Positions 24,945 through 36,655 of a DNA stretch of 64,000 bases are shown here, one piece after another. The translations under genes were made by a program, and so were the position numbers. Where the stretch lies: positions 1 to 64,000 of IMG/VR virus record IMGVR_UViG_2511231106_000004. One strand, given 5' to 3'. The stretch is from a virus. Its lineage: Duplodnaviria > Caudoviricetes. The notes under the pieces are model-generated. The model ran no database searches, had not been told where the DNA came from, and was given only the letters and a program-made list of their open reading frames with translations. How positions within the stretch are numbered: position 1 is the first letter of the stretch; each line of letters begins with the position of its first letter.

Positions 24945-25775
24945 TTACCCCTGCCTTCCAACAAACACCAGATAGTCGTTCCACACCTCGTACCACTTTC
25001 TCCCCAGCTTAATCTTCACCGGGCCTTCGTACCCAAAGGGATACAGCCGGAAACTGCCTGTTCCGTTTACCAACCTGACCCGTCTGTTGTTCACAAGGCC
25101 GGCAGAAGATTCTACAAAGACTTCTTCGTCATCAATATCCCGGGTTAGCTTCTCCTTCGTAGAGAAATCTCCTTTGTACTTTTGGATGGTAAAATCGATA
25201 TAATCCTTATCACCTTCCGGGGTGAAGGGTTCTTCCGGATCTCCATCAATCAGGTATCCTTTCCGGTTGGCCATCAGTTCCCGGTCCCCAGCGGAAAGGC
25301 TGTAGCTGTCCCAGAGTTTCATCCTGGGATGATCCCCCAGGATCAAGTCGCTGGTGTTAAAGGGCAACAGTTCATATTCCTGGTCCGTGTCAAGGGTCAG
25401 GTTTTCCTTCTGCCCGTTGAACATCCGCACCACAATATCCCGCTGGCCTTCCGCCATGATGCCCGTATCGATATCGAGGATGGTGGTATTTCCATAAAGC
25501 TGGGTCAGGACGGCAAAGTCCAGCTTGATGGATACTCCCAGCCGGTTAAGGTCAAGGAACCGGTAGTCCGAGGCCATGGGACGGCGGAACAGTTTCACGG
25601 TCCCGTTTCCTTCTGTAAGAACGTAGGAACTGTAAGGATGCATGGTCTCGATCACATCCGCTCCCTTCCGGCTTTCGCTGTTGCTGGTGCATTCCGCCTT
25701 GCAGTAATCGCCCCGGAGAGTCAGGTGGATCAGGTAGTCAGCATTGGATTCCTCGTTGTAATAGATCTTCAGCAT
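24945..25775 (-). CDS. Hypothetical protein of the rSAM cluster
   Basis: 276-aa ORF coupled to both neighbours; RBS GGAGG. Confidence 0.8.
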   Translation of the reverse strand: MLKIYYNEESNADYLIHLTLRGDYCKAECTSNSESRKGADVIETMHPYSSYVLTEGNGTVKLFRRPMASDYRFLDLNRLGVSIKLDFAVLTQLYGNTTILDIDTGIMAEGQRDIVVRMFNGQKENLTLDTDQEYELLPFNTSDLILGDHPRMKLWDSYSLSAGDRELMANRKGYLIDGDPEEPFTPEGDKDYIDFTIQKYKGDFSTKEKLTRDIDDEEVFVESSAGLVNNRRVRLVNGTGSFRLYPFGYEGPVKIKLGRKWYEVWNDYLVFVGRQG

Positions 25776-26179
25776 ACCCCTTCCTCCTTGTCTGCTACAT
25801 CGTACCCATTGACCAGGACATCCTTGCCACCCTCGATGGTCAGGCGATAGCCGGTGACTTCTTCCTTTTTGATTTTCATCACATCCTCCTGCATCTTTCT
25901 CCCTTCAAAAAGCATCTGGATTCGTCCATTCATAGCCTTCCGCACGCCTTTGAGGGAGATGGCGCTTCGCAACCCAGTAAGGGTGAAAAGAAGGCTGTTC
26001 CCCGCCAGGACCAGGTCTTTGTTCCGTTCAAAATGGAGTGTCTGATGGAGCTGGACCTGTTCTACCATCAGCAGGTTCCTTGCCCGATGGCCCCGGTCCA
26101 CCACCAGCATTCCCGGTTTTAGATTCTCTACCGGCACAGGCCCTTCCGCCGTACTTACGTTTCCTTTTGCAATGATCAT
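25769..26179 (-). CDS. Stand-alone degenerate Hint (Hedgehog/intein) domain protein
   Basis: IAKGNVSTAEGPVPVENLKPGMLVVD resembles Hint block A; GYRLTIEGGKDVLVNGYDVAD resembles blocks F/G; lacks Cys1 and His-Asn. Confidence 0.65.
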   Translation of the reverse strand: MIIAKGNVSTAEGPVPVENLKPGMLVVDRGHRARNLLMVEQVQLHQTLHFERNKDLVLAGNSLLFTLTGLRSAISLKGVRKAMNGRIQMLFEGRKMQEDVMKIKKEEVTGYRLTIEGGKDVLVNGYDVADKEEGVC

Positions 26180-26193
26180 AAGTTGTTCCTCCT

Positions 26194-26565
26194 TTAGCTG
26201 TCATCCGAGCAATTGCAGTTGCAGTCGCAATTGCAGTTCTGGGTCATGTAATACTGGCATTTCTGGCACCCCTGGCAGGTTTGGCACCCTTGACAAGTCT
26301 GGCATTTTTGGCATCCCTGGCATGTCTGGCAAGACTGGCACCCCTGACAAGTCTGGCAGCAGTTGGCCTGGCAACAGTTTCCCGAAAAGGCCTCCTCTAG
26401 TTTGTTCACCGCTGTTTCCAGGGCTGCCACGTTGATTTTCTTCACCTTGTCATAGTTCATCGAGGAAAGGTCGATGGAAATCTTCGTCTTTGTGGCAAGG
26501 GTCTCCAGTCCCGACTGGATGTCCGTCAGGTCCTTCTTCCATACAATCTCGTTCTGACTTGCCAT
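26194..26565 (-). CDS. Cys-rich (CQx)12 repeat protein, putative rSAM substrate (123 aa, 20 Cys)
   Basis: MASQNEIV... ends CNCDCNCNCSDDS; RBS GGAGGAGG. Confidence 0.85.
   Translation of the reverse strand: MASQNEIVWKKDLTDIQSGLETLATKTKISIDLSSMNYDKVKKINVAALETAVNKLEEAFSGNCCQANCCQTCQGCQSCQTCQGCQKCQTCQGCQTCQGCQKCQYYMTQNCNCDCNCNCSDDS
26254..26376 (-). repeat. 9-bp tandem repeat TG(C/T)CAGnnn encoding CQx units
   Basis: Twelve consecutive CQx codon triplets. Confidence 0.85.
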
Positions 26566-26566
26566 C

Positions 26567-26929
26567 TTATGGCCCTCCTCCCGAATCGTCCGAGCAGTTA
26601 CAGTTGCTACAGTTGCAGTTGCAATCGCACTGCCCTCTCGTCTGGCAGGTACAGTTCCTCGAGCTGCACTGGCTGATGCTCTGGCAGGTTTGGCAGGAAC
26701 TGGACTGACATTTCTGGCTCTGACATCCCTGGCAGGTCTGGCATTTCTGGCACGACTGGCAGAAGGTGCAGTTTCCGCAGTTGTCCACATTGGCCCCGTA
26801 GGCATTGAGCTGTTCCAGGGCCGTCTGGAGTTCCGTCACATGGATGGCCTTCACCTTCAGCTCACTGGTATCTGTGAGGGCTGTCGTGTCCGTGAAGGTG
26901 GTTTTATTGATGGTTCCGTTCTTTGCCAT
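26567..26929 (-). CDS. Cys-rich protein, putative rSAM substrate (120 aa, 19 Cys)
   Basis: Helical N-terminus (KAIHVTELQTALEQL), CQx repeats, ends CDCNCNCSNCNCSDDSGGGP. Confidence 0.85.
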   Translation of the reverse strand: MAKNGTINKTTFTDTTALTDTSELKVKAIHVTELQTALEQLNAYGANVDNCGNCTFCQSCQKCQTCQGCQSQKCQSSSCQTCQSISQCSSRNCTCQTRGQCDCNCNCSNCNCSDDSGGGP

Positions 26930-28025
26930 GGTTCTTCTCCAATAGCTTCTGCCCGTACTGCTGGATGGCTATCAGGACCGGAGTGAAAACGGCCCGCTTG
27001 AGCCGGCAGTAGGATCCCTTCCGGGCTTTGTCCCCCACCAGCTTGCAGCCGCCCTGACAGAAGGCGAGAGCTGTACAGGACAGGCACTCTTTTCGATACT
27101 CATGGGTGTGGTCCCCAGCAAGGATCCGCTGCAAGTAACTGAAGTACCCGTCATGGATGGTGCCGGCTTTCCGGGAGGTGTTGTGGCAGGGATACAGATT
27201 GCCCTGGAGATCCAGGTTCAGTACCGTGAGGCCGTTCCCGCAGGCCGCCGTGTACCGGTCCCACTTGCCTTTTCCCGTCAGGTAGAAATCCTTCAGGGAT
27301 CCAAAAAGCTGACGGATGTAGGCTTCTTCCGTGTACCGATCCGGGGGGACCCGTTTCCCAAAGCCGTCCAGGAACTGGAGGGCCATGGCCGTCATCTCCC
27401 GCTTCACCCGGCTGTAGTCTATGTCCAGCAGATTCTTCTTCGGAAGGCCCGTATCCATGATCTCGTCCAGGTTCACGGCAATCTGGTACCCATGGATGAC
27501 ACTGTACTCCTCCGAAATCTTCTGGAATGCCTGAAGCACTTCCCGGGGATAGGCTTTGGCGGAAAGGACGGCAGAAAGACAGAGATGTCCCAGGGCCAGG
27601 ATCCGTTCCCGGGTTTCCGGCACGGAAAACACATCGTATCCCCGGGTTTCCCTCACGTGAGGTCCGTCCCAGGACACACAGACCGTAAAATTCCGGGCAT
27701 TAAAAAAACGGACCATTTCATCCGTGAGGGCCCGGCCATTGGTAATGATCCCAAAGGTCATGTTCAATTTGCGTTTCTTAACAGCAGCCACCACTTCCTG
27801 GATGGTGCCAAAGTACAACAGAGGCTCCCCGCCGTAGAACTGCAGGTGGAGGGGCCGGGAGTTTTCTTGAGAAATCTTTTCCAGGAAGTCGTAGATTTCT
27901 GGGTTGACCTCCCGGGTCAGAGGCTTATGCACCAGAGGATGCTGCAGACAGTAAGCACAGTTCATATTGCAGGAATTCCCCAGCATGAGGAATACCGTGT
28001 TAATGTTCCGTTTTAAATATTTCAT
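26904..28025 (-). CDS. Radical SAM/SPASM-domain protein 1
   Basis: CNMNCAYC, FYGGEP, ITNG, SWDG; CGNG..GNLYPCH..CLSCTALAFCQGGC SPASM; ATG overlaps the tail fibre stop. Confidence 0.93.
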   Translation of the reverse strand: MKYLKRNINTVFLMLGNSCNMNCAYCLQHPLVHKPLTREVNPEIYDFLEKISQENSRPLHLQFYGGEPLLYFGTIQEVVAAVKKRKLNMTFGIITNGRALTDEMVRFFNARNFTVCVSWDGPHVRETRGYDVFSVPETRERILALGHLCLSAVLSAKAYPREVLQAFQKISEEYSVIHGYQIAVNLDEIMDTGLPKKNLLDIDYSRVKREMTAMALQFLDGFGKRVPPDRYTEEAYIRQLFGSLKDFYLTGKGKWDRYTAACGNGLTVLNLDLQGNLYPCHNTSRKAGTIHDGYFSYLQRILAGDHTHEYRKECLSCTALAFCQGGCKLVGDKARKGSYCRLKRAVFTPVLIAIQQYGQKLLEKNHGKERNHQ

Positions 28026-29794
28026 CTTCCACTCCTTACGATGATCTTCACCAGCCGCACGTTTTCTGCGGTATCGTCCTTCACGATCTGTCCCACCGCC
28101 TGGGTAAGACTTTCGCCCGAAAGGGCCATCCGGCCCACTCCCGGCATTTCGGAAGGGATCACCCATCCGCCTTTCTTGGCTTTCCCATACATCCGGACAG
28201 GCACACGGCCGGCCAGGGCTACGGGGATATACGTAGGGAGGTTCACTTTCAGGATGTCGTCCCCCGGAGAAAGGGTCCGGCCACCGATGATGGAAGCGAA
28301 ATCTTCCGTATGGACTCCCACCACACACAGGCTGCCGGCAGTGGCTTTGATATATTGCTCTTTGCCAGAAGTTTCGTCCAGGGCAATGATGTCTCCCCGC
28401 TGAGTATCCCCGCCCCGGGGAAAGAATTCAGCGTAGTCGTTATAGACCGCGTTGTAGACTTTGGTGGCGGTAATCGTACCCGGAAAAGACGTATTCCCAG
28501 AGGCATCCAGCAGCACAGCTTCTCTTACAAGGGCTCCGAAATAGTTATCTTTTTGGCTATCACTCGTATTCCATTTATACTGTCTAACATAGATGGGTTC
28601 GGCATTGTCATCCCCAGTGGCCAATTCTACCCATCCCGCATTCTCAGCGCCTCCTACCCGGATGCGAAACCGGTCGGAAGTACCACATTTTGCGTAAACC
28701 AAATCGGTGGGGGTATCCACAGGAGCTTCGCTTTCCACCTTAGCGGCCTTCGGATACACTGCCGGCTTGTTCTTCACAAAGGCCTTGCTGTTGGTATCCG
28801 TCACATTCCAGTCGGCCTGTACCTGGTTACTCAGAGCCCCGCTTTGGGCATCGCTGGCAGCTTGGGCCATTTCCGTTTTTGTGGCATAAGTCTCCTGGAT
28901 ATTGTTTCCTGCCGCATCGGAGGTTGCCTTTACCGCGGTTCCGTTCTTATCGAGTTTGGTGCTTATGAGATTGGTGATCGTAGCAGCAAAGTTGGGATCA
29001 TTGCCCAGCGCCGCAGCCAATTCATTCAGGGTATCCAAAGTTTCCGGAGTCCCGTTGAGAACGGATTGAATTGCGGCGGTAATGGCAGCTGCCACGAAAG
29101 CCGTGGTCGCTCCCTGGGTATTGTTTGTCCCGGTCGGTGCCGTGGGAAAGGTCACTTTTCCGGTAAAGTCAGCACCGGACAGATTGGCCTTCTTGGGAAG
29201 GTCGTTGTTGACCAGAGCCGTGTATTTATCCGCGGCCGCTTTCGCACTGGCTGCTGCGTTGGCTGCACTCTTCCCGGCATTGGTGGCCTGGGTAGCAGCC
29301 CCTTCCTGGGAAGCCTTGGCTGCCGCTGCACTGCTGGCAGAGGCTTTGGCACTGGTGTCCGCGGCCTTGGCACTGGCAGATGCTTCGGCAGCACTTTTGG
29401 AAGATGCTTCTGCCCAGGTCTTAGCGGACTTGGCTCCGGCAATCCCGTCCGGGTTTCCAGTACTTTCTGCCCAGGCCCGTGCGGTTGCTGCCCATGTCTT
29501 GCTGGACCGGGCATTTGCAATCCCGTCCGGATTGGTATCACTCTCCGCCCACTGCCGGGCTGTATCTGCCCAGACTTTAGAAGATCGGGTTCCTTCCCCG
29601 GCGGGAGGGCTGTCGCTTTCCGCCCAGGCTTCCGCCATGTTCTGGCTGTTGAGGGCATTCTCTGCATATTCCCCGGCTTTGTTTTTGTATTCCCGGGCCT
29701 GGTCGGCGGCATAGGTATCCGCCACGTCTCCCAGTTCCACTTCCGTGTTATTTTGGACGGTCAGCGTCACTTCCACATTGCCAGTATCAGACAT
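28022..29794 (-). CDS. Tail fibre protein with C-terminal Peptidase_G2-like autocleavage/chaperone domain
   Basis: AWAES repeats, Ala-rich shaft, TLDTLNELAAALGNDPNFA fibre motif, NDYAEFF...VALAGRVPVR. Confidence 0.85.
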   Translation of the reverse strand: MSDTGNVEVTLTVQNNTEVELGDVADTYAADQAREYKNKAGEYAENALNSQNMAEAWAESDSPPAGEGTRSSKVWADTARQWAESDTNPDGIANARSSKTWAATARAWAESTGNPDGIAGAKSAKTWAEASSKSAAEASASAKAADTSAKASASSAAAAKASQEGAATQATNAGKSAANAAASAKAAADKYTALVNNDLPKKANLSGADFTGKVTFPTAPTGTNNTQGATTAFVAAAITAAIQSVLNGTPETLDTLNELAAALGNDPNFAATITNLISTKLDKNGTAVKATSDAAGNNIQETYATKTEMAQAASDAQSGALSNQVQADWNVTDTNSKAFVKNKPAVYPKAAKVESEAPVDTPTDLVYAKCGTSDRFRIRVGGAENAGWVELATGDDNAEPIYVRQYKWNTSDSQKDNYFGALVREAVLLDASGNTSFPGTITATKVYNAVYNDYAEFFPRGGDTQRGDIIALDETSGKEQYIKATAGSLCVVGVHTEDFASIIGGRTLSPGDDILKVNLPTYIPVALAGRVPVRMYGKAKKGGWVIPSEMPGVGRMALSGESLTQAVGQIVKDDTAENVRLVKIIVRSGR

Positions 29795-30122
29795 TGTGAG
29801 CCACCCCCTTGATGATGAAAGATTTGGTAAAGAAACAGGTGAGGATCCGTTCCGTCTCGCTGTTCATGATCGCCATGTCGTAGATGTATGCTCCAGGCTC
29901 CAGGGAATCCAGAGCTCCCTTGGGCACCACCACATCCACGAAGTTGTTGTTGGGATTGTAAAAGGTATCCGTATACACTACTTCGGAAGAGTTCGTGGTC
30001 TTCTTGATGGCAAAGACCACTTTGTCCGCATTGGTCAGCTTGTAGTTGCTAAACCGGAACCGGATGGAAAAGGTATCGTATTGGGATACCTGGATATTCT
30101 TGTTTTCGTCAATGACCAGCAT
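29787..30122 (-). CDS. BppU-like baseplate/fibre adaptor protein
   Basis: YDTFSIRF...VFAIKK...GAYIYDM...SFII beta-sandwich pattern; position. Confidence 0.65.
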   Translation of the reverse strand: MLVIDENKNIQVSQYDTFSIRFRFSNYKLTNADKVVFAIKKTTNSSEVVYTDTFYNPNNNFVDVVVPKGALDSLEPGAYIYDMAIMNSETERILTCFFTKSFIIKGVAHNV

Positions 30123-30123
30123 C

Positions 30124-30768
30124 TTAGCCTCCTCCCGAATCATCGCTGCAGTCACAGTTACAATTGCAGTTGCACTGGGAATTCTCTTTCCAGTATTCTT
30201 CCGTATGAGATCGGTTCACCAGTTCCTGCAGGATGCGCCGGAGGGTGTAGGTTCCTGCCGGGATCCCCCGGTGTTTCCGGATATGGTAAGCAGACTTGAT
30301 GGACAGCGGTCTCGGTACCGATGTGGGGCCTGTCTCCACATCCCAGGAATTCAAACCCATCACCCGGGCGTCCTTGTCTGCCTGAGTGCTGGAAGTAACC
30401 GCAATTTCCACCTGATCGATGAGCCGATCATCGGTCAGTGTTCCCATCCCGTTATAGGTAACCTGTACTGTTTTTCCTGCATCTGCGGCAGAAAACTTCA
30501 GGGTCCCGGTATTCCACCCTTCAATGCCGTGCTCCGTAGTCAGGTAATCTGGCCAGTACTGTCCCTGGGCCGGTTCTTCCGACACTTCCGTCAGGAGCAC
30601 CCCATTTTGATATTTCACTTGCAGTGTGGTGGGCGATGTTTTTTGGGGCACTTCCGCCAGCCGGATGGTATAGGGGCTGTTGCTGGGGATCACGTGGGTT
30701 TCGTCGAAGATTTTCTTGATGTCAAAGGTGTTGTCAAAGGGATTGAATCGATAATCATGGATGGCCAT
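30124..30768 (-). CDS. Tail-module protein with C-terminal CNCNCNCDCSDDSGGG tag
   Basis: MAIHDYRFNPF..., coupled (TGATG) to the tail hub gene; tag shared with the Cys-rich proteins. Confidence 0.85.
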   Translation of the reverse strand: MAIHDYRFNPFDNTFDIKKIFDETHVIPSNSPYTIRLAEVPQKTSPTTLQVKYQNGVLLTEVSEEPAQGQYWPDYLTTEHGIEGWNTGTLKFSAADAGKTVQVTYNGMGTLTDDRLIDQVEIAVTSSTQADKDARVMGLNSWDVETGPTSVPRPLSIKSAYHIRKHRGIPAGTYTLRRILQELVNRSHTEEYWKENSQCNCNCNCDCSDDSGGG

Positions 30769-32012
30769 CAGCTTCCTCCTTTCCATTGTTTCAGGGCCGA
30801 AGACTGGGACTGCTCGATATCCTTGGACCGCCGTTCGATTTCTGACAGATACCGGTCCACGGAAAATTGGGGCTCGCCCAGCTCCATTTCGGTCTTGATG
30901 CCCTTTTCCCCGGAGAGGGTGTATTTGATCTTCTTGATAGGATAGGTATCCGCATTCCCATCCAGCCTTCGGATTTCCGCCAGCCCGTAAGTAGACATAT
31001 GTCGGACGTTGAAGGTCCCGTCCGGGTAAGGGTACTCCAGTCGCACCCCGCTGATCTTGGCGGATTTCACAGGAGCCTTGTACTGGCTGATCTGGTTTTC
31101 GCCCCACCTTTTGGCATCGGCGGCATCGTAGGCTTCCGGCAGGTTCCAGACGGCCTGGTGGACCCCGTAGCTGTTCTGGCTTTCCTTATCTTCCACAACG
31201 CACAGCCACTGCTCGCCCTGGTCGTCCACGCTGCCCCCCTTGATCCGAGCCCAGTTCACCAGTTTGGACACATCCCAGGAAGGGGTGTAGGAAGTAATGT
31301 GTTTTCCTACCGTAAGACGGGCCTGTTCGTTCACTGCTGTCTCTCTGCGGCGAAAGTACAGACACCGGTATTCATCCACTCCGTACACGTAATCCACGGC
31401 AAAGTCCGCCAGGGTATTCAGGGCCTCTTTCACCGTCACCCCGTCAAAGACCAGTTTGGTGGGACGGTATCCCACGCTCTGGATCTTGCTGTCGTTGTAG
31501 ACCACCTGCAATGTCTGCCGTTCCACCTGGCGGGCAATGTCCCGGACGATATCTCCCACGTCCGTATTCTCATAGGTCTTCCAGAGCATCACATTCTCCA
31601 GCCGGTTGTAGAAACCATAGCCTTTGTACACGAACTTGGTATCCGTAGTCCCTTCAATAGGCCGGCTGATGATGTACCCGCTGTACCAGGGTTTCCGGTC
31701 TCCGTACAGGTGGATGTCGATACGCTGCATATAGTCCAGCTGGGCGTTATCCGGCTGCCGGTAAAAGGTCATCTGGCACTGGCCACAGCCGGTGCTGGTG
31801 ATTTCAAAGGTCACTTCATTCAGGGTATTGGCCTCGCTGCCCCCGCCAAAAATAGCCGTCCGGGTCCCGTCCTTTTTGTAGGCATAGACCACGAACTGGC
31901 CGGGATAGTACTCATGGACCTTGCCCCGGTCGCTGTTTCCTTCACCGGCCCCAGTAGGACCGGCAAAGATCCACCGGCCGAACAGGCCCCGTCCAAAGAT
32001 GAAATTCGTCAT
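30768..32012 (-). CDS. Tail hub / Tal-like protein
   Basis: Follows Dit; YENTDVGDIVRDI, SQNSYG patterns. Confidence 0.75.
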   Translation of the reverse strand: MTNFIFGRGLFGRWIFAGPTGAGEGNSDRGKVHEYYPGQFVVYAYKKDGTRTAIFGGGSEANTLNEVTFEITSTGCGQCQMTFYRQPDNAQLDYMQRIDIHLYGDRKPWYSGYIISRPIEGTTDTKFVYKGYGFYNRLENVMLWKTYENTDVGDIVRDIARQVERQTLQVVYNDSKIQSVGYRPTKLVFDGVTVKEALNTLADFAVDYVYGVDEYRCLYFRRRETAVNEQARLTVGKHITSYTPSWDVSKLVNWARIKGGSVDDQGEQWLCVVEDKESQNSYGVHQAVWNLPEAYDAADAKRWGENQISQYKAPVKSAKISGVRLEYPYPDGTFNVRHMSTYGLAEIRRLDGNADTYPIKKIKYTLSGEKGIKTEMELGEPQFSVDRYLSEIERRSKDIEQSQSSALKQWKGGS

Positions 32013-32794
32013 ACAAACCACCTGTTGGTATAGGTAATTTCCACCGTGCCCGCTCCTCCTGTGTACAGAAAGAGGTTGGCTCCCGGTTTGGCATGGAGGA
32101 AGGTGCCCGTAAAGGCATTGATGCTGTTGTCTTTATCCCGCCAGACTGTCCCTTCCCGGCCATTCACAATGGAGGTCTTGGGAGCCACCAGCAGTGCATC
32201 CGTCAGGGTGAACTTCTCTTTGGCTTCCTGGTGCCAGACCGTAAGGTTCGTCATCCGGTCCAGGGGAATGAAGCGGAAAGTGAGAGGCGTATCCACGCTC
32301 CCCAGGTTGTGGAGCACCATTTCTGCCTGCACCGTGGCCTGGGGAAAGACGAACACCACCCGGGATTCCTGGGCTTCGTAGCGGAACGGGTCTGCCAAAA
32401 GCAGGGATACTGTGATGTTGCTCCGCCTCTGTTTGAAACCGTTCTCAAACTTGTGCTTGATCTTGGACAAACAGGCTACATGGTAGACCCGGTCCGGTCT
32501 TCCCGCCATCAGGGAATAATCCGTCTGGCCAAAGAAGGTGTAGGCCTCGTTCAGCACTTCGTCATGGTCTTCTTCCGTAGCACCTTCCATGGAAAACTCC
32601 ACCTGGAGAGTCCGTCCGTCAATCTTTCCATCCCCCACTGCATCACTTCCATGGGCAAAGGCCCGGGACTGGAGCTTGCTCCGAAAAGTATAGCTGCCGC
32701 TGTCCGTAAGGCTCCAATGGACCGGCAGCTTGTATTCCACCCCGTCTTTGGTGATGGTAAAATTCTGTTCGTTTTCTTTTCTTTCCGGAAACAT
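32009..32794 (-). CDS. Distal tail protein (Dit)
   Basis: Downstream of the tape measure; ADPFRY, NLGSVDTP, PGANLF. Confidence 0.8.
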   Translation of the reverse strand: MFPERKENEQNFTITKDGVEYKLPVHWSLTDSGSYTFRSKLQSRAFAHGSDAVGDGKIDGRTLQVEFSMEGATEEDHDEVLNEAYTFFGQTDYSLMAGRPDRVYHVACLSKIKHKFENGFKQRRSNITVSLLLADPFRYEAQESRVVFVFPQATVQAEMVLHNLGSVDTPLTFRFIPLDRMTNLTVWHQEAKEKFTLTDALLVAPKTSIVNGREGTVWRDKDNSINAFTGTFLHAKPGANLFLYTGGAGTVEITYTNRWFV

Positions 32795-33216: not shown

Positions 33217-36200
33217 TTACGCTCCTCTCAGTCCTGCCAGGACAGCATCGGTGAAGCCATCCATCAGATCATCCAGATCTGCGGCGTTGTTGATGTCTCC
33301 GTAGTTGTTGAACGTGGTGTTCATTTCCCGGTTGTCCGTAGATTCGCTGGAATTTGTGATGCCTTCGGCAATGCTGTCGAACACCGCCCTGTTCAGGGGT
33401 AAGGCCACTTCGTCACCGGCATCCCCCAGGACACCAATAAGAGGTCTTGTAAAATAGCCGCCTTTGGCATAATGAGGAGTCTTCCCCGCTCCCTGGGCCG
33501 CACCGGCAGCCGTATTGGACGCAGCTGCTGCCATGCCGATGCCCACTGCCGCGGACGTACCTCCCGTCAGAAGGCCCGTAGCGATGGGACCTGCAGACGG
33601 GTCGATGACCAGTTTCAGCCAGGCCGCAGGAGCCAGAGCCCCGGCCGCTGCCGTTCCCTGAGCCACCGTCTTGGCGGCACTGGCCGCATTGAGCTTATCC
33701 CCGAAGAGAGCTGTCACCAGCATCCCGGACAGCATCTGGGAGAAATAGCTTGCGATGGTTTTCAGCATGGCCTTTCCCAGATCCAGGAAGGCATCCTTGG
33801 CGTTCTTGGCCCCAGTCAGGATATCCGTAAAGGCTGTCTCCAGACCGCTTAAGGTGGTGGACGCCATGTCCGCGATGAGTTCCAGGGTTCCCATATGGGC
33901 ATTCATATAGGCTTCCTGGTAGGTATCCATGAGAGACTTTTCCGCATCGATGTTGCTTTGCCGGAGGGCCATTTCTGCTGTGAGAGTCTCCTGCAGCATG
34001 GCCAGGGAATTCTGGTTGTAGGCTTCATCCAGAGCTGCCTGGATGTCTTTCCCCTGGGCAAAGTAGGCGTTCCGTTCCTCCATATAGCTTTTGTAGGCTG
34101 CTGCTTTTTCCAGATTGGCCTGTTTGTCAAAGGCAATCTCGTTGGCACTGGCCTGTTCATAGGCAATGCCTTTTTCCTTCAGAGCGTTCAGGAATACAGC
34201 CTTTTCACTGGCCGTCAAAGAAATAAAGTCCTGGGACAGCTTGGCGTACTTGTCATCAATGGACGCCACGGCCTTTTCCATGTCGGACTGCATCTTCATG
34301 ACTTCCTGTTCCTGTTTGGAACCATAGAGGGTAAGTTTGGCAGTAACGGCATCAAAAGACAGGTCCCGGGCTTTGTTCATCAGTTCCCGGTTTTTGGCCT
34401 GTTCTTCCGAAAGGGCGTCCAGGCGCTTCTGGGCATATAGCTCTGCCAGACGGGTCTTATCCCGTTCGTAGTTCTCGTTGGCAGACCGGGATTTTTCCAG
34501 TTCGTCCGTTTCTTCCTTGTACCAACGATCCACCAGGGCACTCTTGGTCTGGAATGTCCGGAACCATTCTTCTTCGATACTCTTGCTGGTCTGAATAGCG
34601 GCATTGGCCAACTGATCTGTTTCTCTGGAGCTTCCTCCCCCTCCGCCACCACCAGAACCACCGCCGCCTCCTCCACCTCCAGAAGGAACTGGGATATCCC
34701 CACCTCCCCCTCGAAGATTGCTGAAGTCCGGCAGCTTAAATTCCCGTTTGGCAGGAGTGCTACTGCCCCCGCCACCTTCTCCACCGCTTTCGCTACCCAT
34801 GGAACCCAGAGCATTGTTGGTTTCCAGGATTTTCTGGATCAGGCTGGAGAGCCAGCTAATGGCTTCGCTGACAAAGTTGGCGATAGTGGAAAGGCCGCTG
34901 GAAGCCCAGGAAGGAAGAATACTATCCGCCATGTCAGACAGAATGCTTCCCACTTCATCGATACAGGAACCGATGCCTTCCACCAGATAGGTGAAGGCAT
35001 TGAGAATCCAGGTCACACATTCACTGAGGACACTGATGAAGTTCAGCACCCCGTTCACCACGGCTCCGATGATCTGGAGGGACGCATAGAAGGCGGCTCC
35101 CATCACGGCAGCCACCAGGGTGAACACCGGCTCCATTGCCTGGAGATTGGCGATGATGGTCTGGGCCGCGGCACTGATCATTGCCTGCACAGAATCCACA
35201 GCCCGGGTGACCGTTTCCATCTTGATGCCCATAGTCCCCAGCACATCTTCCACGGTCATCCCGCTTTTCCAGATGGCATAGAGGGCCGTAGCCACCGCTG
35301 CCGCAGCCGCGATAAAAGGAGCTGCAGCCACTACTGCTGCCACAAAAGGAGCCGCCATCAGGGCCACCTTGGCCACAAAAAGTCCAATGGCCGGAATGGC
35401 AAGGCCAGTGAGAGTACTCACAATGAGGAGGATTCCTGCCTGGAATTCAGGAGGAATGGCTGTCATAAGAGCTTCCGTAAGTCCGGAAGACTGGACGGTG
35501 GCTGCAAAGTTCGTCAGCATATCCCCCAGGGACTGGAAAATCCCCGTCAGGTTCAGGGCTTCCGCAAGCTGGAGCCCTACCTGGGCCGCAGACTGTTCCA
35601 GCCCATCCATCAGGGTGGACCAGGTACCGCTGATGGTCTGGCTCTGCTGATCCATCATGCCCCCAAAGGACTGCTCCATGCCGCCGACTAAGGCCGTGAT
35701 GCCCGTTGCCGCGTCAATGGCTCCCTTGGACACCATGCTCATGGCTTCCGGCACAGACACACCGATCTGGTCTGCCAGCATCTTCCAGGCAGGGATCCCG
35801 GTTTCGGTAAACTGCATCATTTCACCGGCCTGGACCTTGGACTTGGCGGCCATCTGGCCCAAAGCCAGGGTGATCCGGTTGACGCCTTCCGCCCCAAGAC
35901 CGACCCCAGCCGCGGCATCCCCAACTGCCGTAAGGGTCGGTATAACCTGTTCTGCAGAAAACCCAAAGGCGATGAACTTCTGGGCCGCCTGGGACACCTG
36001 GCTGAACTCAAAGGGGGTCTTGGCCGCAAAGTCCTGCATCTTGGCCAGAAAGTCCTGGGCTTTTTCCGCGCTCCCCAGCATATTGGTGAAGGCAGTCTTG
36101 GTACTCTGGAGACTGGCCCCTGCTTTCACAGATGCCACTCCCAGGGCAGCCAGGCCGGCCCCGATGCCGCCTAAGACGGCCAGGGATTTCTTCGAAACGT

Positions 36201-36315
36201 CCAGAGCCTCGCTCCCGAAGGCGGTCTTGATCTGACGTTTGGTTGCATTGAGTTCTTTCCGGAGGTCAGAAGTATCCGCCCCGATCTTTACCAGAAGGTC
36301 AGCGATGGTTGCCAT
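33217..36315 (-). CDS. Tape measure protein
   Basis: IADLLVKIGAD, FAAKTPF, LGQM tape-measure domain; hydrophobic helical middle. Confidence 0.95.
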   Translation of the reverse strand: MATIADLLVKIGADTSDLRKELNATKRQIKTAFGSEALDVSKKSLAVLGGIGAGLAALGVASVKAGASLQSTKTAFTNMLGSAEKAQDFLAKMQDFAAKTPFEFSQVSQAAQKFIAFGFSAEQVIPTLTAVGDAAAGVGLGAEGVNRITLALGQMAAKSKVQAGEMMQFTETGIPAWKMLADQIGVSVPEAMSMVSKGAIDAATGITALVGGMEQSFGGMMDQQSQTISGTWSTLMDGLEQSAAQVGLQLAEALNLTGIFQSLGDMLTNFAATVQSSGLTEALMTAIPPEFQAGILLIVSTLTGLAIPAIGLFVAKVALMAAPFVAAVVAAAPFIAAAAAVATALYAIWKSGMTVEDVLGTMGIKMETVTRAVDSVQAMISAAAQTIIANLQAMEPVFTLVAAVMGAAFYASLQIIGAVVNGVLNFISVLSECVTWILNAFTYLVEGIGSCIDEVGSILSDMADSILPSWASSGLSTIANFVSEAISWLSSLIQKILETNNALGSMGSESGGEGGGGSSTPAKREFKLPDFSNLRGGGGDIPVPSGGGGGGGGSGGGGGGGSSRETDQLANAAIQTSKSIEEEWFRTFQTKSALVDRWYKEETDELEKSRSANENYERDKTRLAELYAQKRLDALSEEQAKNRELMNKARDLSFDAVTAKLTLYGSKQEQEVMKMQSDMEKAVASIDDKYAKLSQDFISLTASEKAVFLNALKEKGIAYEQASANEIAFDKQANLEKAAAYKSYMEERNAYFAQGKDIQAALDEAYNQNSLAMLQETLTAEMALRQSNIDAEKSLMDTYQEAYMNAHMGTLELIADMASTTLSGLETAFTDILTGAKNAKDAFLDLGKAMLKTIASYFSQMLSGMLVTALFGDKLNAASAAKTVAQGTAAAGALAPAAWLKLVIDPSAGPIATGLLTGGTSAAVGIGMAAAASNTAAGAAQGAGKTPHYAKGGYFTRPLIGVLGDAGDEVALPLNRAVFDSIAEGITNSSESTDNREMNTTFNNYGDINNAADLDDLMDGFTDAVLAGLRGA

Positions 36316-36655
36316 TTCCGTCAGCTCCTTTCCGTCTGAATTCCTCGAAGAAGGCATCCCGTTCTGCTACGATTTCACTGCTTGTCTTTTTGGGCAGGAA
36401 GGGTTTCATCAGCTTCTCTGTCCGTACCGGTTTCCGGGTGTGGACGCTCATGAGACAGGCCACCCAATAGGCAGTCGCCCATTTCTTCCGTTCTTCTGCC
36501 TTTACCCGGCACTCGGCCATCCGGTCCAGTTCCAGGGGAGTTAACGCATAAAACTGGGCAGGCAGAAGATGCAGGAGGCCATAGGCTACTTCTTCCGCCC
36601 ACCGCAGCCAGTCGTTAAAAGACGGGACTTCTTCCTGTCCCGCCGTCAGTTTTTT
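36299..36655 (-). CDS. Tail assembly chaperone extension (gpGT-like, -1 frameshift product)
   Basis: Open -1 frame from the slippery site: KLTAGQEEVPSFNDWLRWAEEVAYGLLHLLPAQFYALTPLEL... Confidence 0.75.
   Translation of the reverse strand, partial: KKLTAGQEEVPSFNDWLRWAEEVAYGLLHLLPAQFYALTPLELDRMAECRVKAEERKKWATAYWVACLMSVHTRKPVRTEKLMKPFLPKKTSSEIVAERDAFFEEFRRKGADGNGNHR

Follow-up and report, generated by a model that had tools for sequence, protein, structure and literature searches.

The closest known system to the locus described here is CrpC/CrpA of Methanococcus voltae, in which a radical S-adenosylmethionine (rSAM) enzyme with a SPASM domain puts ranthionine thioethers, at C-x-x-Q/D motifs, on a large repetitive Cys-rich protein and not on a short peptide that is made by the ribosome and modified after translation (RiPP) (Dieter et al. 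2026, PMC13692751). Likewise, PapB of the freyrasin system (PapB/PapA, NF047865) forms Cys-to-Asp/Glu thioethers in repeated short motifs with varied ring sizes tolerated, its acceptors being Asp, Glu and C-terminal carboxylate residues (PMC12373016). In the streptococcal RaS-RiPP pair NxxcB/NxxcA, a Cys-to-Asn beta-thioether is made within N-x-x-C, with Asn as the native acceptor and Gln and Asp tolerated (PMC9389541), and the rSAM/SPASM enzyme QhpD makes Cys-to-Asp/Glu links in QhpC, the gamma subunit of quinohemoprotein amine dehydrogenase, i.e. inside a subunit of a larger assembly. Here, a stretch of 64,000 nucleotides of a tailed virus, an Acidaminococcus prophage (positions 1 to 64,000 of IMG/VR record IMGVR_UViG_2511231106_000004, hereafter the window) was analysed, in which three genes end in the same short Cys ladder and a neighbouring cassette encodes two rSAM enzymes of probable SPASM type (rSAM1 and rSAM2), a degenerate Hint-like protein and two conserved proteins named p276 and p209. 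It is fairly probable that these enzymes, which lack a RiPP recognition element (RRE), put thioether cross-links in virion tail-tip proteins.

Several features separate this locus from the described systems. CrpC has an RRE, belongs to TIGR04463 and acts in a cellular archaeal host with no virion context, while the CrpA repeat is 17 residues long instead of a CxC ladder and is not accompanied by Hint, p276 or p209. PapA is the precursor of a short secreted peptide with C-X3-D units, whereas the proteins considered here range from 120 to more than 460 aa and have structural N-terminal domains. Each N-C-N-C of the ladder is formally an N-x-x-C, although the substrate of NxxcB, compared here by its description, is a short quorum-regulated peptide that receives just one cross-link. 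QhpC, in turn, has a leader and is a subunit of a periplasmic enzyme, and its partners QhpE and QhpG are not present here. Moreover, no paper that describes Cys ladders linked to rSAM genes on phage tail proteins turned up in literature searches.

A cysteine ladder ends three genes of the window

The C-termini of the 214-aa tail protein and of two small proteins of 120 and 123 aa, all encoded on the minus strand (Table 1), consist of a C[N/D]C[N/D]C ladder and, after it, SDDS(GGG). The open reading frames (ORFs) and their ends were re-read, and the coordinates and tagged C-termini agreed with those of a first-pass annotation of the window, as did its description of the 214-aa protein as Cys-free outside the tag, since all five of its Cys lie inside it. 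The three genes have plausible starts, and those of the 214-aa and 123-aa proteins a ribosome-binding site of the GGAGG type. When the 111-kb provirus record was scanned with a degenerate DNA pattern coding for C[ND]C[ND]C, eight matches were obtained, all of them within these three genes, compared with a calculated chance expectation of ~0.03 and with no match for the reversed control pattern. Furthermore, synonymous codons (TGC/TGT, AAC/AAT) differ between the three tags, which argues that they are kept at the protein level and do not stem from a recent DNA duplication.

The same annotation had counted three different proteins with this tag. The tag does end three genes, but the 120-aa and 123-aa proteins are paralogues (BLASTP E 1e-10), and the match between them and the 214-aa protein is confined to the tag, so that it sits on two unrelated protein families and not on three. 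Both small proteins also contain (C-Q-x)n repeats, whose 9-bp periodic coding sequence keeps other frames open at 26172-26435 (+), 26201-26374 (-) and 26490-26708 (+); the resulting Gly/Pro-rich, pseudo-collagen-like ORFs are almost certainly not genes.

A total of 163 homologues of the 214-aa protein were found in the protein collection, the few with an organism label coming from Acidaminococcus intestini and an uncultured Dialister, while tblastn searches of cultured and GenBank phages gave no match to this protein. In this family, C201, C203 and C205 are nearly invariant, and the C-terminus of nearly every full-length member reads N-C-[ND]-C-[ND]-C and then [SG]-D-D, or differs little from this. 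The helix GTYTL..ILQ.LVN.SH that precedes the ladder is conserved as well, and in many members it bears an SH(T)H motif. The ladder tag is portable between proteins, as had been proposed from the window: the helix-plus-ladder module also stands at the C-terminus of a 463-aa fibre in locus L010, where it is borne by the counterpart of the 590-aa tail fibre of the window, and of a 367-aa protein in locus L122, and the fibre gp028 of Achromobacter phage JWF carries this module too.

Other relatives share the hub-side N-terminal domain only (loci L016-L018 and L063-L077). These have long Gly-rich C-termini, often ending in a short hydrophobic strand such as IVIVEW, and in these phages a different tip takes the place of the ladder module.

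Linkage of the tag to the radical-SAM cassette

Loci around homologues of the 214-aa protein were taken from species-representative genomes and IMG/VR, and all their ORFs were scored against the proteins of the window, tagged loci being counted only if they had at least 7 kb of downstream DNA. All 43 tagged loci (eight clusters at 70% identity) carried rSAM1, rSAM2, p276 and p209, whereas none of the 16 untagged relatives (nine clusters at 70% identity) had any cassette gene, two counts that overstate independence, as the loci are phylogenetically clustered. The cassette of the tagged loci, which came from Acidaminococcus, Succiniclasticum, Phascolarctobacterium, Megasphaera and other contigs, was composed of rSAM1, a dead Hint domain, p276, rSAM2 and p209. 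The untagged relatives, from Synergistetes and others, had only the ~117-residue N-terminal domain in common with the tagged proteins and ended in a Gly-rich C-terminus; in the Synergistetes loci that were inspected, the lysis genes came straight after them. The linkage was strict in the reverse direction too. A search seeded on p276 recovered the cassette, and each of the 12 loci read in detail contained at least one ladder protein, including all the new arrangements, such as that of L122, with the order 367-aa ladder protein, Hint, p276, rSAM2, p209 and rSAM1. No orthologue of the 214-aa protein that keeps the tag without the rSAM genes was found among the scored loci. The claim that the tag links a structural protein to the rSAM cluster is thereby supported, and a functional tie between the tag and the cassette is very probable.

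The small (CQx)n proteins are not required for this association. In L009, the whole cassette lies immediately after the tagged tail protein and there is no (CQx)n gene, and none was found in L010 and L122 either, which keep the whole cassette. Therefore, the cassette needs no partner beyond a ladder-tagged tail protein, and the (CQx)n proteins would be additional, optional substrates. A division of labour, with one rSAM enzyme for the ladder and the other for the CQx repeats, was rejected, since cassettes without CQx proteins retain both enzymes.

These arrangements also bear on the possibility that a secreted RiPP or bacteriocin, carried as phage cargo, is made from the (CQx)n proteins, the tag on the tail protein being coincidental. 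Small Cys-rich proteins that adjoin SPASM maturases are indeed the usual RiPP layout. However, Pfam, PHROG and NCBIfam scans found no leader protease, transporter or immunity gene in the cassette, which is maintained in L009 with no (CQx)n gene and is located within the tail-fibre module, upstream of the lysis genes. Moreover, in eight lineages a hub-adjacent tail protein has the tag as its conserved C-terminus. Neither an RRE nor a protease or transporter family expected of a RiPP cluster is present, and the substrates would include the 214-aa protein and the 463-aa fibre. Thus, a RiPP cargo is very improbable.

The two radical-SAM enzymes

Both enzymes matched the radical SAM domain above the Pfam cut-off (Table 1) and are 39% identical to each other over 124 aa. 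The CX3CX2C motif was invariant in the 12 aligned sequences of each enzyme (C18/C22/C25 in rSAM1 and C23/C27/C30 in rSAM2), and so were seven C-terminal Cys of the putative SPASM region, including Cx2Cx5Cx3C, in 12 of 12 sequences of each, while no Pfam SPASM-domain match was listed for either of them at E <= 0.1. On solved structures, rSAM1 aligned over its full length with the anaerobic sulfatase-maturating enzyme (anSME, 4k36), and with CteB (5wgg) only from CteB residue 96 onward. Since rSAM1 begins at the radical SAM core and the CteB match starts at residue 96, it has no N-terminal RRE, and rSAM2 has none either. In this respect, both would be RRE-less SPASM proteins like anSME, which acts on proteins directly. 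As a side observation, rSAM2 is broken into ORFs of 266 and 87 aa at L109:4671-5742, while it is intact (357 aa) in the near-identical contig L110, so that the split is either a sequencing error or a sign of a decaying cassette.

The best NCBIfam match of both enzymes was PapB (NF047865), rSAM1 scoring 111 bits and rSAM2 56.9 bits (cut-off 340), followed among the curated families by QhpD, CcpM and SCIFF; these best matches, like CteB, are thioether-forming maturases. In particular, QhpD (TIGR03906) was the third-best NCBIfam match of rSAM1 (E 5.5e-25, 87.9 bits against a cut-off of 453), and the scores of the CrpC family (TIGR04463, 47.6 bits against 525) and the anSME family (TIGR03942, 59.4 bits against 349) were lower.

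These scores leave room for the rSAM enzymes modifying the tag by another chemistry, such as anSME-like oxidation of Cys to formylglycine, C-C cross-links, epimerization or two successive steps. Such a reading would fit the full-length alignment of rSAM1 with anSME and their common lack of an RRE, the scores of both enzymes under all equivalog cut-offs and the constant presence of two different rSAM enzymes in the cassette. On the other hand, the anSME motif C/S-x-P/A-x-R was found in none of the three tags, the top-scoring families form thioethers, and the conserved N, D or Q neighbours of the Cys suit thioether acceptors. A chemistry other than thioether formation is therefore considered unlikely.

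Residues of the ladder and the proposed cross-links

Among 68 distinct C-termini, the residue between ladder Cys was N or D in 171 of 181 positions (95%; Asn 57% and Asp 38%), and Gln followed the Cys in 241 of 270 C..C units (89%). Asn, Asp and Gln all belong to the acceptors known for rSAM thioethers. The ladder can be read as N-x-x-C and C-x-x-[ND] simultaneously, and the CQx repeats as C-x3-Q. The first-pass annotation had left open whether the tag is a maturase docking site, a cross-linking site or a metal-binding ladder in a trimer; the restriction to N, D and Q, together with the enzyme family, favours from the sequence a probable cross-link site that would double as the recognition element.

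According to this proposal, the ladder (C-N/D)n-C, followed by S/G-D-D, and the (C-Q-x)n repeats would be the substrate of both rSAM/SPASM enzymes of the prophage and probably also their recognition element, since enzymes without an RRE leader-binding domain must read the sole feature common to the substrates, namely the C-terminal helix-plus-ladder module. In analogy to NxxcB, PapB, CrpC and QhpD, the enzymes would remove a hydrogen from Asn, Asp or Gln at the beta or gamma carbon, and this carbon would then be joined to the thiol of a neighbouring Cys held on an auxiliary Fe-S cluster, the product being a stack of reduction-proof thioether staples. The substrates would be parts of the virion, i.e. 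the short hub-anchored protein, both small fibre-like proteins and also, in relatives, the tail fibre, with the dead Hint protein, p276 and p209 as obligatory accessory parts. In this way, a phage of the anoxic gut would obtain tail proteins whose distal tip is rigid and resistant to proteases and redox conditions. If the tip is trimeric, the cross-links may be inter-chain, forming a covalent 'thioether zipper' similar in concept to the HK97 capsid chainmail. The tag, its conservation, its strict two-way linkage with the cassette and the enzyme class are observed; action of the rSAM enzymes on the tag, a thioether product and the presence of the proteins in the virion are inferred.

Metal-binding sites are known at the distal C-terminus of fibre tips such as those of T4 gp37 and P2 gpV. 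Accordingly, the ladder could be a metal- or Fe-S-binding stack at the trimeric tip of the tail proteins, like the HxH sites of T4-type fibre tips, with the rSAM enzymes doing something else or helping to load it. Runs of CxC and CxxC are classical thiolate ligand motifs, an SH(T)H helix stands ahead of the ladder in many family members, and the distal C-terminal position is the same as in those tips. However, a metal ladder leaves the strict need for two SPASM enzymes unexplained, and its outward positions should vary freely, contrary to the strong preference for N or D between the Cys and for Q after the Cys in the repeats. A metal site is thus an improbable explanation of the ladder.

Some points weigh against thioether cross-linking of the tail tips, in addition to the phylogenetic clustering of the loci. 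The tagged proteins are assigned to the virion from gene position only. The scores of both enzymes lie far under all curated equivalog cut-offs, so that a chemistry cannot be assigned to them through family membership. Two rSAM enzymes are present even with a single tagged protein, and the need for both is unexplained. Finally, as said, the Cys runs resemble classical metal-binding motifs.

Cysteine ladders beyond this family

An independent scan of IMG/VR for a five-Cys ladder yielded at least 79 new loci, which were sorted by the position of the ladder; the following counts refer to the matches listed. For ladders ending at most 12 residues from the stop in ORFs of at least 75 aa, 25 of 30 loci contained an rSAM gene (two rSAM profiles), and four of the five rSAM-less ones had <2.5 kb on one side. 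An rSAM gene appeared in three of 44 loci with internal, short-ORF or simple (CD)n repeat matches, and those three were real ladder proteins misfiled by the filter. The difference between C-terminal and other ladders gave p ~1e-11 in Fisher's test, with loci that are not phylogenetically independent. Moreover, many of these unrelated ladder proteins had a helix of the L..L.EL..H.H type before the ladder. A single rSAM gene was found in 21 of 28 of these ladder loci. Since most other ladder loci have one rSAM, the combination of twin rSAM enzymes, dead Hint, p276 and p209 appears as an elaborated variant of these prophages.

A compact version of the system is encoded by gp028, gp029, gp030 and gp031 of Achromobacter phage JWF (L088, NC_029075, 29502-33424). 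In this phage, gp028 comprises a T4 gp36-like fibre, the ladder and a Cys-initiated Hint domain, and gp030, after gp029, is an rSAM protein labelled as an anaerobic sulfatase-maturating enzyme in one record. As the phage was cultured, gp028-gp030 would be the most practical experimental model. The notion that it is specifically the phages of anaerobes that use thioethers in place of disulfides lost support, as ladder and rSAM also occur in this phage of the aerobe Achromobacter.

Taken more widely, the proposal that phages of very different lineages (siphophage-like prophages of Negativicutes, JWF and many IMG/VR contigs) cross-link their own tail tips through thioethers by means of viral rSAM enzymes is tentative, and we lean slightly against it rather than towards it. 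If true, a virion structural protein would for the first time be the target of post-translational modification by a radical-SAM enzyme, which would be a new class of virion post-translational modification, and this would extend rSAM thioether chemistry past small antimicrobial peptides to a widespread viral means of hardening or shaping the host-recognition organelle. It would also supply thioether ligases that are protein-directed, need no RRE and come with a short portable C-terminal tag, useful for protein stapling, and would explain phage 'radical SAM' genes that are listed as auxiliary metabolic or 'antibiotic synthesis' genes. One of these is ORF306 of cyanophage S-SCSM2R, a 'radical SAM superfamily maturase' that was read as an antibiotic synthesis gene (PMC12801897) and may be a member of the same fibre-ladder system.

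Accessory proteins of the cassette

The 136-aa Hint-like protein was recognized by a profile of 12 sequences, which matched the bacterial intein-like domain 2lwy (E 4e-5) and the gp41-1 intein (E 1.5e-4), and it scored 24.9 bits against Pfam Hint_2, under the cut-off of 28.4. In the alignment, residue 1 is the start Met, followed by I, V or L, and the block-B His position is occupied by R, K, M, V or L. Lacking both the Cys1 nucleophile and the block-B His, the protein is predicted to be unable to self-cleave. Unlike this separate gene, P0121 and P0122 (348 and 371 aa), which are homologues of the 214-aa protein, have a ladder that runs straight into a Hint domain with Cys1 and TGDH, as gp028 of JWF also has a Cys-initiated Hint domain fused after the ladder. 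The fused relatives, together with the separate dead Hint of the window, suggest that an ancestral self-cleaving fusion was split and repurposed. A search for longer fused forms of the N-terminal part of the 120-aa protein found none, which is weak evidence.

The genes of p276 and p209 overlap the adjoining genes, and the two proteins have 59 and 31 invariant columns, respectively. They matched no family of Pfam, PHROG or NCBIfam and had no sequence relative in PDB, and the protein atlas gave no usable match. The model of p276 (mean pLDDT 77) had intimin D0-D1 as its best Foldseek match, with a low TM score, and that of p209 (mean pLDDT 88) consists of two beta-sandwich domains, the C-terminal one being FN3-like; overall, Foldseek and VIA-align retrieved generic Ig/FN3-like sandwiches for both, with no specific structural relative. 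The residues H123, H130, D133 and H172 of p209 are invariant and, judged by their conservation, could form a metal or active site. The N-terminal halves of p276 and p209 show the same order of secondary structure, with an hhalign probability of 8% (E 0.004) that is suggestive at most, and the two may be distant paralogues, one paired with each rSAM enzyme.

Gene neighbourhood

The genes of this part of the window are collected in Table 1. The tail-fibre module contains the cassette, which is upstream of the lysis genes. The first-pass annotation had placed the 214-aa gene between the tail hub and BppU-like genes; the hub was recovered as YQBQ-like, but the BppU-like label was not reproduced for its downstream neighbours, the 590-aa protein matching PHROG tail-fibre families and the 122-aa protein matching phrog_1084.

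Table 1. Genes around the Cys-ladder tag in order of transcription; all genes of this part of the window are on the minus strand.
Feature	Position	Strand	Description
Tape measure	33217-36357	(-)	
Dit-like gene		(-)	
Tail hub	30768..32021	(-)	YQBQ-like, PF24032; directly upstream of the 214-aa protein
214-aa tail protein	30124..30768	(-)	~117-aa N-terminal domain (common to untagged relatives), variable middle, conserved helix GTYTL..ILQ.LVN.SH, Cys ladder; ladder tag at 30127-30177; gene directly after the hub gene
122-aa protein	after the 214-aa gene	(-)	phrog_1084 match (family of unknown function)
590-aa tail fibre	28022..29794	(-)	PHROG tail-fibre family matches; no ladder in this copy
rSAM1, radical SAM/SPASM, 372 aa	26904..28022	(-)	PF04055, 40.6 bits (cut-off 29.5)
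120-aa (CQx)n protein	26567..26929	(-)	Helical N-terminal part, conserved NVDNCGNC motif, CQx repeats, ladder tag at 26570-26629
123-aa (CQx)n protein	26194..26565	(-)	Conserved SGNCCQANCCQ motif, ~11 CQx units, ladder tag at 26197-26238
Hint-like (bacterial intein-like) protein, 136 aa	25769..26179	(-)	Free-standing, degenerate; right after the 123-aa gene
p276, conserved cassette protein	24945..25775	(-)	Model: tandem Ig-like beta-sandwiches
rSAM2, radical SAM/SPASM, ~320 aa	23981..24964	(-)	PF04055, 36.3 bits (cut-off 29.5); start TTG 24964 or ATG 24943
p209, conserved cassette protein, 217 aa	23331..23984	(-)	Start overlaps the rSAM2 stop (ATGA)
Holin-like genes		(-)	
Amidase		(-)	

The tail fibre of the window is 590 aa long, compared with 499 aa in its closest relatives (L001-L008), of which L004 belongs to Acidaminococcus fermentans WCA-389-WT-5B. 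Its N-terminal third contains several near-repeats of an Ala/Ser-rich unit (..NPDGIA.A.S.KTWA..), which may explain the difference in length.

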